64,000 bases of DNA from Chloroflexota bacterium (GTDB lineage: Bacteria > Chloroflexota > Dormibacteria > DASZGP01), in NCBI GenBank assembly GCA_034666405.1, contig JAXDLW010000028.1:3295-67294 (forward strand). The letters run 5' to 3'. Shown one piece after another: positions 49,570 to 51,786 of the stretch. The notes beneath the pieces are model-generated. The model was not told where the DNA came from. It made no database searches and saw nothing but the letters and a program-made list of their open reading frames with translations. Each line of letters starts with the position of its first letter. The stretch's first letter is position 1. Position numbers and translations under genes: made by a program.

Positions 49570-49905
49570 CTATTCGGTTGACGACGCCGGGATGGGCAGT
49601 GACACTCGTTCGTCACCGAAGACCGCCGCAACCTCGAGCTTTCCGTCGATCGCCTCCAGATAGGCAGCAAGAGTTCCGAGATCCACGACCTCCTGGTGCT
49701 CAATCCGGGACACATTGCCCTGTGTTCTGTTCAGGCGTTCCGCAACGGCGCTCTGAGTTAGTGCCTGCTGCTCCCGAAGACGCTGAAGCGCCTCACCGAT
49801 ACTGTACGCCGCCAGATCAGCGTCGACCCGCCCCCGCCGGGCTGGGTTCTCGTCGATTTCCCTGGCCAGCTCGCTGAACTTACCGTGCCTCTTCATGACT
49901 GCCAT
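49570..49905 (-). CDS. HigA-like XRE antitoxin
   Basis: LTQSAVAERL..TQGNVSRIE; coupled to the toxin gene. Confidence 0.85.
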   Translation of the reverse strand: MAVMKRHGKFSELAREIDENPARRGRVDADLAAYSIGEALQRLREQQALTQSAVAERLNRTQGNVSRIEHQEVVDLGTLAAYLEAIDGKLEVAAVFGDERVSLPIPASSTE

Positions 49906-50261
49906 CAGAGTTCTCCTTCGGATCTGAGTTCATCCAGGTATTCGTCGTAAAGGCCCTCAGCCTTGGGCACGTTCTCCGCATACCAGGTGTTCCACTGGCC
50001 GGCTTTGTCGCCACCAAGGAGCAGAACGGCGGTACGGCGCGGGTCAAACACGAACAGGATCCTGATGGAGCTCCCAAGGGGCCTGAGCTCCTTCAGATTC
50101 GAGACGGATGAATACACCAGGGTGTCCACCAAGGGTCGCCCCAAGGTCGGCCCATCCTGCACGAGCTTCTCCACGGCCGCACGAATCCGCTCTTGATCCC
50201 GACCGCTGACTGTCTCGTACCACCGTCTGAACTCCTCCGTGACCTCAGGGTCGCGGTCCAT
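49905..50261 (-). CDS. RelE/HigB-like toxin
   Basis: GPTLGRPLVDT, LKELRP, IRILFVFDPRR, LLLGGDK. Confidence 0.88.
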   Translation of the reverse strand: MDRDPEVTEEFRRWYETVSGRDQERIRAAVEKLVQDGPTLGRPLVDTLVYSSVSNLKELRPLGSSIRILFVFDPRRTAVLLLGGDKAGQWNTWYAENVPKAEGLYDEYLDELRSEGEL

Positions 50262-50270
50262 TAGCTCCGC

Positions 50271-50299
50271 ATAGTATCAGGCCGGCATAATATCTGCAA
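50271..50299 (-). promoter_or_regulatory. Sigma-70 promoter of the higBA-like operon
   Basis: TTGCAG-17 nt-TACTAT, overlapped by direct repeats GCATAGTATC/GCATAATATC. Confidence 0.7.
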
Positions 50300-50332
50300 G
50301 CCGGCCGAGGGTCTCCCAAGACATCCCACACC

Positions 50333-50575
50333 CTACCTGGATGCCCCGTCGTGATCACGGAGGAGCCTCAGGGCTTTGGCGTGTTTCTCGACCATCTTCC
50401 CTGCAAGAACGTCGATCCCTTCCGTGAGGTCGCCTGCCCGGAGCATGCGTATCTCCCCCGTGGGATCGCGCTCGACGAGGACATAGGCTCCGGGTCCAAA
50501 ACCCGACTCCTCCCACTGCTTGGGCAGGGCGACCATGTTGCTGTTCCCGATGCGGCGAATCTTGAGCATCTTCAT
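50333..50575 (-). CDS. AbrB/MazE-type antitoxin
   Basis: LKIRRIGNSNMVALPK. Confidence 0.82.
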   Translation of the reverse strand: MKMLKIRRIGNSNMVALPKQWEESGFGPGAYVLVERDPTGEIRMLRAGDLTEGIDVLAGKMVEKHAKALRLLRDHDGASR

Positions 50576-50611: not shown

Positions 50612-50634
50612 GCGAAGCGAGGGACGAAGACGAT

Positions 50635-50693
50635 GGCCGGATTTGAACTAGCGACCCCCGCGTCCCAAACGCTGTGCGCTACCGGGCTGCGCC
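50635..50693 (-). pseudogene. Degenerate tRNA-Pro(TGG) copy lacking the acceptor stem
   Basis: 56/59 identical to the core of the tRNA at 55652-55728. Confidence 0.85.
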
Positions 50694-50793
50694 CACCTCG
50701 GAACCCGGCGCAAGGGCAAGGTCTTCCAGGCAGGGCTGCGGGCGTCTCTCGAGCAAAGTCGGAAGATCCTCGAGGCAGTTGTCGTTTCAGACC

Positions 50794-50871
50794 CCTGGGG
50801 TGCGGAAAGGCAGCGCGAACCCGATCCTTCGAGTCGGCGGGTGCCAGGTTCGTCCCGGTCAGCGCCCCGGG
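50794..50871 (+). ncRNA. Candidate structured RNA
   Basis: Outer stem CCTGGGGTGC/GCGCCCCGGG and inner stem GCGAACC/GGTTCGT. Confidence 0.35.
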
Positions 50872-50933
50872 CGAGGGGTTAGGTGCGAAGCGTTCACGCG
50901 GGTAGACTAGCGACTCTTCCTGGAGGAACCGCC

Positions 50934-51176
50934 GTGGGCAACGAGTTCGACGCCGACGCGCCCCGCTTTCGAGCGGAGCAGCAAGCGCCGCAAGGGCTAC
51001 CCGTCCGAGACGCACGTCAAGCGTGGCGTGCGGATCGTTCACGGCTTTCAAAGAGCTAGAGGAAAAGCTCGGACGCAACGATCCCTGCCCCTGCGGGTCA
51101 GGTCGCCGCTTTCAAGCGGTGCTGCGCTGGCAGCGGCCGCTTCGACGGCTCGCCGAGGAACCACTACTCGCGGTGA
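50934..51176 (+). CDS. SEC-C zinc-binding protein read through three +1 frameshifts
   Basis: GGAGG-7 nt-GTG start. Reassembled product: [79 protein letters not shown]. Confidence 0.75.
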
Positions 51177-51189
51177 TGGACGCCGGCCG

Positions 51190-51786
51190 TCAGAGAGGGG
51201 CCCCCTCAAGGATTCGCTTCAGGCACCTGAAGTCGGGACTTCGGTAGATCCAGCCTATCGCGGAGCTGGCGCACGCCGCTACGGCTGGTAGGCCATCCAC
51301 AGTCGCATCGAGCAGGACCCGGCTTTGCTCCCCCATGTCCTCAACTATGTAGGCGGAGACAACGCTCATACCTCTGCCGGCCGCAGTGATCTCGACCAGC
51401 CGTGGGGGCTCCAATCGGCTGAACCTATGCATCATGCGGGATTGCTTGCGCCACCGCCGTTTCGACGCGAACGTCCATTCCTGACCCACTTCCGGCGGGA
51501 CATCGGCAGGCTGACAGGCGCCCACCCGTGGATTCCACAACGGCTGATTGGCCGGCCTGGCAAGAAACTCGAAGACCTGCCCGGCTGGGCGGTCGATCGT
51601 CACGCTCTGACGGATTCGGGCGGTGACCGGGAACGGATAGTAAAGCGCTACACCCCACAGCGCGATGGCGAGAAACACCCAATACCCCAGCTGGAGTGGG
51701 TACAAGGCCAGGCCCACCACCGCACCGACGGACACGAAGGACCAGACCACGAATAGCGGCCAAACATGAGCTCTCCGAATGCTCAC
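51190..51786 (-). CDS. Membrane-anchored SRPBCC-family protein
   Basis: [26 protein letters not shown] after two TMs. Confidence 0.75.

Follow-up and report, generated by a model that had tools for sequence, protein, structure and literature searches.

How can a complete SEC-C zinc knuckle be encoded where no single reading frame holds the whole of it? The question is raised by positions 50934-51176 (+ strand) of a 64,000-nucleotide stretch of DNA from a Chloroflexota bacterium (assembly GCA_034666405.1, contig JAXDLW010000028.1), which is referred to below, at its full length, as the window. A sequence-only reading had proposed that a hidden gene lies here and needs three successive +1 frameshifts. 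The comparison with homologues makes it probable that this is a functional gene and that its product is formed by conserved programmed +1 ribosomal frameshifting, through slippage of the P-site tRNA-Phe.

Frames and predicted product of the gene

The elements of the gene, from the Shine-Dalgarno (SD)-like motif to the stop codon, are the following.

50922-50926, + strand: SD-like GGAGG, 7 nt 5' of the GTG start at 50934
50934-50969, + strand: leader in frame 1, consisting of GTG, 10 codons and TTT
50967-50970, + strand: shift site 1, TTT_C in CGC-TTT-C-GAG (50964-73); the next 0-frame codon is CGA, the +1 codon GAG (Glu13)
50971-51048, + strand: segment 2 in frame 2, with the invariant residues K17, R18, R19, G21, P23, S24, E25, T26, V28 and G31
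51046-51049, + strand: shift site 2, TTT_C in GGC-TTT-C-AAA (51043-52); the next 0-frame codon is CAA, the +1 codon AAA (Lys39)
51050-51112, + strand: segment 3 in frame 3, the first half of the SEC-C knuckle with CPC
51110-51113, + strand: shift site 3, TTT_C in CGC-TTT-C-AAG (51107-16), between the CPC and CC ligand pairs; the next 0-frame codon is CAA, the +1 codon AAG (Lys60)
51114-51176, + strand: segment 4, again in frame 1, with the stop codon TGA at 51174-76

When TTTC is taken as a single step at all three sites, reading passes through frames 1, 2, 3 and 1 and gives a product of 79 amino acids. The Pfam SEC-C profile (PF02810) scored 35.9 bits on this product against a cut-off of 20.4 (E 6.6e-9, residues 47-64), and the whole motif was absent from each single frame of the gene. 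Both ligand pairs, C51-P-C53 and C62-C63, are present and are joined only past site 3. By profile score and by its four ligands of the type CxC...C[C/H], the three-shift product is a putative SEC-C protein, for which metal binding is predicted.

The local signals were found where the sequence-only reading had placed them, including the GGAGG before the GTG, the TAG (51057-51059) that ends the unshifted frame, and the lack of any ATG, GTG or TTG in the 25 open codons ahead of SKRRKG in the middle frame. Its statement that each TTT on the path is a shift site also held, as 50934-51176 contains just three TTT triplets, all of them in TTT-C sites, while both TTC Phe codons (50946 and 51141) are decoded normally. 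The leader has 11 codons before its TTT. The three-shift product stops short of the convergent neighbour, an open reading frame (ORF) at 51190-51786 (-), which begins 13 nt past the TGA.

A search with the three-shift protein returned 1796 proteins at E<=1e-3 among 1831 candidates; among the 120 matches listed, identity was 64-87% over 68-97% of the query. In an alignment of 25 sequences, for which a consensus was derived, the window protein keeps all 21 invariant columns and is 59-76% identical to the other 24 members. The frame structure goes beyond chance, because all of these invariant columns are kept and homologues are shifted at the same junctions. The conserved core from E13 to the CC pair is present in the window, as is an SD-led leader that ends in TTT-[C/T]-GA[A/G] and lies in the -1 frame relative to the core.

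Residues 46-67 resemble the solved chains YchJ-C (9l6b, E 6.6e-9) and the metal-binding domain (MBD) of SecA (1sx0, 1tm6, 1ozb), with the pattern CxC-x8-CC. For the N-terminal 45 residues, no Pfam family and no solved structure was matched, and all NCBIfam matches cover the SEC-C part only, below their cut-offs. The AlphaFold2 model is of low confidence (mean predicted local distance difference test, pLDDT, 60.5). The family, unnamed so far and labelled 'nucleic acid-binding protein' in some NCBI records, is, as judged from its sequences, one of widespread small basic proteins (about 65-80 aa) predicted to end in a SecA-like SEC-C zinc knuckle.

Annotation mis-reads this family: database proteins start with out-of-frame leaders ('PAFE...') or stop at F69 or F78. 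The 'PAFE' N-termini are the out-of-frame reading of leaders ending in L-P-C-F.

Shift junctions in homologues

One genome per species was scanned, and at least 595 loci were confirmed; the 80 best of these were used together with the window, so that the sample is biased to high tblastn scores. Five junctions were classified in these 81 loci by anchoring on conserved blocks. The first three sites of this numbering are those of the window; the window reads straight through the two further family sites, site 4 (F69, here CGC-TTC-GAC) and site 5 (here TAC-TCG-CGG-TGA), without a shift.

At site 1 (leader-F|E13), a clear shift was observed in 55 loci and a variant with seven Ts (T7) in 15; five loci showed another arrangement, one had no leader start and five were not assessable. 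The sequence TTT-[C/T]-GA[A/G] was present in 71 of the 76 assessable loci. An ATG 6-25 codons upstream of the site, with no intervening stop, was found in the leader frame in 56/76 loci and in the other frames in 11 and 16. When a start codon together with an SD-like motif 5-25 codons upstream was considered in the 55 loci with a clear shift, the leader frame gave 46 and the other frames 5 and 5. In the family, the TTT is preceded by 9-14 leader codons (mode 11), apart from one leader of 18. For site 1, the sequence-only reading had named both a TTT-C slip and an alternative CCC-C slip. The former is borne out by these counts; the latter, which would lead into frame 2 as 'PAFE' in several database proteins, was ruled out, as 'PAFE' is itself out of frame and TTT-[C/T]-GAR is conserved.

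The T7 variant (…TTT-TTT-T-CGAG) has an SD-led leader in the third frame in 12 of 15 cases. Its carriers (L040, L043, L047, L056, L063, L068, L077, L079, L082, L085, L094, L096, L100, L103 and L105) belong mostly to Planctomycetota, with L043 labelled Pseudomonadota and L056 unlabelled. From the sequence, re-initiation as a bypass, a -1 slip, or two adjacent +1 slips (TTT_T TTT_C) may apply at this variant. A similar run was seen at site 5 of the metagenome contig L112, where eight Ts stand ahead of AGG-GAC-TAG, as would be expected from two neighbouring TTT_T slips or from an error in the homopolymer.

Site 2 (G37-x38|K39) was shifted in the window only among 72 assessable genome loci. A metagenome scan by a pattern that leaves the four-base junction free gave seven contigs (L107-L113), and in six of these the junction was shifted. 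The tetramer was TTT_C in L107 (GGG-TTT-C-AAG) and L108 (GGC-TTT-C-AAG), and the shift occurred on GGG_C or GGG_A in L111-L113. L109 is shifted at site 2 and degraded in appearance, and L110 was a false positive. L108 requires the three shifts of the window, and L107 requires a shift at site 4 in addition, four in all (sites 1-4).

Site 3 (F59|K60, between CPC and CC) was shifted in 14/76 loci, 13 of them with TTTC and one with TTTT (TTT_TAA). Site 4 (F69|D70) was shifted in 55/74 loci, with TTTT in 42 (TTT_TGA), TTTC in four, CTTT in three (CTT_TGA, the prfB sequence) and other junctions in six. The latter six have no homopolymer at the junction placed by the script (CTG_C, CTG_T, GTA_T, ATA_T); in two of them, L080 and L091, the sequence suggests that the shift more probably occurs at CTT_Y after Leu64. 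Residue 69 is Phe where site 4 is shifted and Tyr in 14 of the 19 in-frame cases. At site 5 (F78|R-E/D-stop), 56 of 73 loci were shifted, 13 were in frame and four were unclear.

Among the 47 fully classified genes, 37 require three +1 shifts, nine require two, one requires a single shift and none is free of shifts. Three shifts put the stop codon in the frame of the start, as in those 37 genes. Sites 3 and 4 coincide in just two of the 14 carriers of site 3; shared ancestry may be the cause both of the exactly-three pattern and of this rare overlap. Carriers were found in phyla that include Planctomycetota, Verrucomicrobiota, Acidobacteriota, Pseudomonadota, Cyanobacteriota, Chloroflexota, Gemmatimonadota and Deinococcota, and cultured strains are among them (Chthoniobacter flavus Ellin428, Stieleria magnilauensis TBK1r, Novipirellula sp. 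SH528 and Massilia pinisoli JCM 31316). The comparison with homologues, which had been set beforehand as a test of the proposed gene, thus found the shifts to be common to homologues and not private to the window genome. The NGC that precedes each shift codon in the window had been noted as a feature of the sites; it is not a rule of the family, where TTT, TGC, TCC, CGC, CGG, TAC and others occur in this place.

Codon-position entropy followed the shifted frames. After site 1 it was 0.37/0.40/1.47 bits in the +1 frame (54 non-redundant loci), and after site 4 it was 0.64/0.51/1.19 in the +1 frame versus 1.17/0.64/0.51 in the unshifted one (38 non-redundant loci). In the weakly conserved leader, the leader frame gave 1.43/1.23/1.56, which is the right order, with a clear GA-N codon at -12. 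The +1 tails after site 5 read RE* in 23 cases, RD* in 14 and REKD* in seven, and the tails of in-frame members (R*, RD*, RE*) match them.

The window has sites 1-3 in common with L107 and L108, yet identity among the three is only 71-75% at the DNA level, and in 57 codons of the shifted path they differ synonymously at 18-22 and non-synonymously at 7-12. When the window is compared with each of the other two, 29-32 of the 57 codons differ, 18-21 synonymously and 11-12 non-synonymously. The three-site carriers have diverged mostly at synonymous codons, and site 2 has thus persisted while they diverged over a long time. A contrasting picture is given by a decayed copy, L114 (CP114562.1, a Candidatus Manganitrophus plasmid; 1490-1760 of the locus), in which there is an in-frame stop inside the knuckle, TCT stands for the TTT of site 1, and invariant residues are lost. 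L114 adjoins an integrase and a SIR2-family gene and has no annotation in the gene table.

At L010 (G020:C35, of the same class as the window genome; about 1400-1650 of the locus, - strand), a SEC-C gene was noted that is related but differs in its N-terminus and has CRC replacing CPC. It carries CGC-TTT-C-AAG within the knuckle and TAC-TTT-T-CGC-GAC-TGA at its end, a pattern from which it would follow that shift sites travel with the C-terminal module. In 40 relatives of the window genome, matches were at the SEC-C level only, mostly at the end of SecA-sized frames; this tally includes one unpublished genome (G032, with one SecA-type match).

Proposed slippage mechanism and competing explanations

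In the proposed mechanism, the ribosome would initiate at GTG 50934, just downstream of GGAGG, and translate a 12-codon leader. At each UUU_C, the P-site peptidyl-tRNA-Phe (anticodon GAA) would read UUU by G:U wobble and, with the A site waiting on the infrequent codons CGA, CAA and CAA, would slip +1 onto UUC, so that reading picks up at GAG, AAA and AAG, respectively. Ribosomes that miss a shift would give truncated or aberrant products without the second Cys pair. Both the ribosomal P-site slippage as the event and the slowness of the A-site codons are inferred. In the ORFs of the window, TTT makes up 15% of Phe codons; CGA, at 10.7% of Arg codons, and CAA, at 11.9% of Gln codons, are infrequent but not very rare. 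ARAGORN predicted one ordinary tRNA-Phe(GAA) in the window genome, with a 7-base loop and G at position 37. A quadruplet-reading tRNA was considered and rejected, as ARAGORN on the genome predicts no four-base anticodon reading UUUC. The same program reported a 92-nt 'tRNA-???' at c[34698,34789] of the window's own genome with the four-base anticodon ggtc, which cannot read UUUC and may be a false positive.

The fourth base at TTT-type shift sites 3-5 was C in 35 cases (TTTC), T in 81 (TTTT) and A or G in none. The base after TTT is always C or T, and therefore the +1 codon is still a Phe codon, in agreement with the re-pairing of the tRNA put forward in the sequence-only reading; the GGG_N sites of L111-L113 likewise keep a Gly codon. 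Were the sites no more than a normal Phe codon with one T added in front, a majority of TTTC would be expected, given that Phe codons read in frame at these positions are mostly TTC (60, versus 10 TTT). The difference between the two distributions is strong (Fisher p = 6e-14, the loci being related). A T as fourth base puts UGA, UAG or UAA in the A site.

Several points weigh against programmed frameshifting. The case is built from the comparison of sequences, most of the comparative loci come from metagenome-assembled genomes, and the loci are related by descent, so that they are less independent than the counts and the Fisher test imply. Four genomes of the same genus (79-94% complete) yielded no copy of the gene, which is therefore dispensable. 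In ordinary ORFs of the window, 23 of 82 in-frame TTT codons are followed by C; in-frame TTT_C being this common, the tetramer alone cannot be an efficient shifter. Unstimulated UUU_Y has a low efficiency per site in E. coli, and as three serial shifts multiply losses, the serial yield would be tiny. No prfB-like SD element was found before the sites of the window, and in the family such an element is not general (site 1, 6/55; site 3, 2/14; site 4, 13/55; site 5, 19/56). mRNA folding was no better than that of shuffled sequences (z = -0.07). In many Planctomycetota members an ATG lies two codons ahead of K17, and the stop of the T7 leader overlaps it as ATGA. The sister genomes L076 and L094 differ by a single T at site 5, which, judged from sequence, could be real turnover or a homopolymer error. 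Beyond the tetramer, some factor must raise efficiency here, or a low yield must be acceptable.

With regard to such a factor, an SD-like stimulator is not a defining feature of the UUU_Y-type sites; SD-like elements were observed at site 3 of L104 and L106 (GGGAGG-CGT-TTT-C) and of L111 (GGGAGG-AAA-TTT-C). The folding z-score gave no support to an RNA-structure stimulator. Separate small ORFs with re-initiation were rejected for the window, as no start codon lies ahead of the conserved parts in its frames 2 and 3; at site 1 in Planctomycetota re-initiation may apply.

The reliability of the sequence was assessed in soil-metagenome runs. Part of the stretch was found in six of them, and four runs were compared at the level of Logan contigs, where rare variants would not show. 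The contigs of two runs that are possible sources of this DNA (X1 and X2) showed no differences and no gaps over 50700-51400. A contig of a third run (X3), from another sample and another study, showed no differences over 51010-51250, which covers sites 2 and 3, and a second X3 contig over 50917-51007 carried seven substitutions and no gap. Upstream of site 1, two of the three listed substitutions of this variant, TTC>TTT (50948) and CGC>CGA (50966), leave the amino acid unchanged in the GTG frame; in frame 2 this holds for none of the three. No insertions or deletions were listed in the contigs of any of the four runs, so that the check for an assembly error at the shift sites returned no indel. 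As a control, prfB of the window genome was found assembled with its canonical AAGGAG-CAC-CTT-TGA-C site.

That three spurious T insertions arose in sequencing or assembly has a next to negligible probability. Such an error could arise in a draft genome of 57 contigs (3.24 Mb, 94.9% complete) from soil metagenome data, compared by contigs; it is opposed by the gap-free agreement of independent contigs from three runs, by the presence of the same sites in dozens of assemblies made by different methods and in isolate genomes, and by the intact shift site of prfB. A reading in which the gene is real and now decaying, with sites 1 and 3 ancestral and programmed and the extra T of site 2 inactivating, is very improbable. 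It would account for site 2 being shifted in one of 72 genome loci, the window itself, and for an accessory gene that is missing from the four same-genus genomes searched. The six shifted metagenome contigs speak against it, since L107 and L108 shift by TTT_C as the window does and differ from it mostly at synonymous codons; moreover, the downstream invariants are all intact, and the true pseudogene L114 looks quite different. On the same grounds (invariants kept, and synonymous exceeding non-synonymous differences from L107 and L108, unlike L114) the window gene was rejected as a pseudogene.

The remaining two explanations accept the extra bases and differ in how they are passed. Polymerase slippage or editing might drop one U (or G) from the RNA, so that ribosomes read an in-frame mRNA. 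TTT+Y can also be written as T+TTY, a Phe codon with an extra T, and GGG_A and GGG_C at site 2 fit a one-G deletion. We consider this very improbable: polymerase slippage, in the cases known to us, needs runs of about 7 or more, and the runs here are just 3-4 bases long; the excess of T as fourth base makes A-site stops, which are relevant to the ribosome and not to the polymerase; and six site-4 loci have no homopolymer at the placed junction (two of them probably CTT_Y), with three more using CTT_TGA. A more serious contender, if still the less likely account, retains the same decoding mechanism and dispenses with regulation. The mRNA or the nascent peptide would make UUU_Y slippage efficient, single-T insertions at Phe codons would be nearly neutral and would be gained and lost freely, and the protein would be produced constantly, with no switch. 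This would agree with the minimum numbers of changes on the tree (six for site 3, seven for site 4 and nine for site 5), which suggest repeated gain and loss, although the tree is poorly resolved (62 columns, 40 of 64 forks open). It would also agree with the one-T difference between L076 and L094, with the use of differing subsets of the five sites by different members, and with three database proteins (P0015, P0017 and P0033) that appear to have in-frame leaders. A similar reading exists for Euplotes, whose abundant +1 sites are attributed to neutral evolution in PMC10235951. Neutral insertion is harder to reconcile with the absence of any shift-free gene among the 47 fully classified ones, 37 of which have exactly three shifts, with the enrichment of a stop-creating T as fourth base, which suggests selection on the sites themselves, and with the preference for Tyr at residue 69 where site 4 is in frame. 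The sequence-only reading had further suggested that the product is made only when fidelity or tRNA supply fails; such a conditional switch would be an inference from the sequence, and the constitutive, non-regulatory account is equally possible.

Known systems, possible role and genomic context

Programmed +1 frameshifting in bacterial chromosomal genes is known in very few cases, each with a single site, and prfB is the classic one; its site is preceded, 3 nt upstream, by an SD-like stimulator, and the logic of its autoregulation is known. Like prfB, the present family consists of chromosomal bacterial genes that would require a +1 P-site slip and are conserved across phyla. Shifty stops, as in prfB, make up many of its sites (UUU_UGA at sites 1 and 4, UUU_UAG at site 5), and three loci use CTT_TGA at site 4. 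In contrast to prfB, the number of sites per gene in the family ranges from one to four (three in the window), there is no general SD-like element and no known feedback, and the A-site codons of the window are the sense codons CGA, CAA and CAA.

UUU_Y +1 sites are described in the review PMC5009743 for influenza A PA-X (UCC_UUU_CGU), for YopN-TyeA of Yersinia and for FseA of an integrative and conjugative element (ICE). These sites share with the present ones a UUU + pyrimidine tetramer and a 0-frame A-site CGN, and TCC-TTT-CGA occurs at site 1 in 11 of the 55 loci. They differ in being single sites that give a minor alternative product, whereas here the shifted product alone has the complete domain and serial shifts are needed. 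The same source mentions mitochondrial genes with 10 and 12 shifts. Nuclear genes of Euplotes and some mitochondrial genes resemble the present family in having several +1 shifts per coding sequence, often with a stop in the A site; there, shifting is a genome-wide trait of unusual translation, whereas here it concerns one small family in ordinary bacteria whose other genes read TTT_C in frame.

The SecA MBD is reported (10.1101/613315) to bind zinc, SecB and ribosomes. The window product is like the SecA MBD and YchJ-C in residues 46-67, with the CxC-x8-CC pattern, and unlike SecA, YchJ and YecA in its N-terminal 45 residues. We know of no frameshifting in SecA, YchJ or YecA, although this was not specifically searched. 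Full-text searches gave no description of frameshifting in the present family, supplements lying outside their coverage. The main text of the GeneTack study (PMC3711429) contains no 'SEC-C' and one unrelated mention of 'SecA', its cluster lists being placed in supplements.

From the analogy with SecA, a ribosome-associated role of the product is a lead, nothing more. One may speculate, with considerable doubt, that the UUU_Y and shifty-stop family acts as an ultrasensitive sensor of A-site vacancy, caused by shortage of release factor or aminoacyl-tRNA or by under-modified tRNA-Phe. The only functional product would depend on one to four (usually three) obligatory shifts on conserved Phe positions, whose yields multiply, and as a ribosome-binding SEC-C protein it would feed back on translation.

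The slip mechanism is of a known kind; several obligatory +1 sites at fixed positions of a short bacterial gene across phyla are, to our knowledge, new. If the frameshifting account is true, a conserved bacterial gene can require three serial +1 shifts, and up to four in relatives, within about 80 codons, and in many phyla shifting returns to the same five fixed positions. Recoding research would thereby gain a natural, compact multi-site test bed in cultured strains. It would then have to be asked, too, for what reason UUU_Y slippage is tolerated or exploited by this mRNA and not by the other genes of the cell.

The window gene has a MazE/AbrB-like ORF on one side and, on the other, the convergent ORF, which is of the Polyketide_cyc2 type; it stands alone between them. 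No family was common to 10 flanking ORFs at six other loci, and the promoter and terminator scans gave 0 and 0. No known RNA family was found at the gene beyond a sub-threshold tRNA match described below. Upstream, at 49570-50575 (-), three small ORFs were observed: HTH_31, Gp49/DUF891 and the weak MazE/AbrB-like one (E 0.0012, below the cut-off). In sequence, the pair of HTH_31 and Gp49/DUF891 appears to resemble a HigB/HigA-like toxin-antitoxin system. The tRNA match lies about 240 nt upstream of the gene, at 50631-50697 (-), where Rfam gave 24.9 bits against a gathering threshold of 29 (E 0.011) and ARAGORN gave none; what is left of a tRNA, or the edge of a genomic island, may be seen here.

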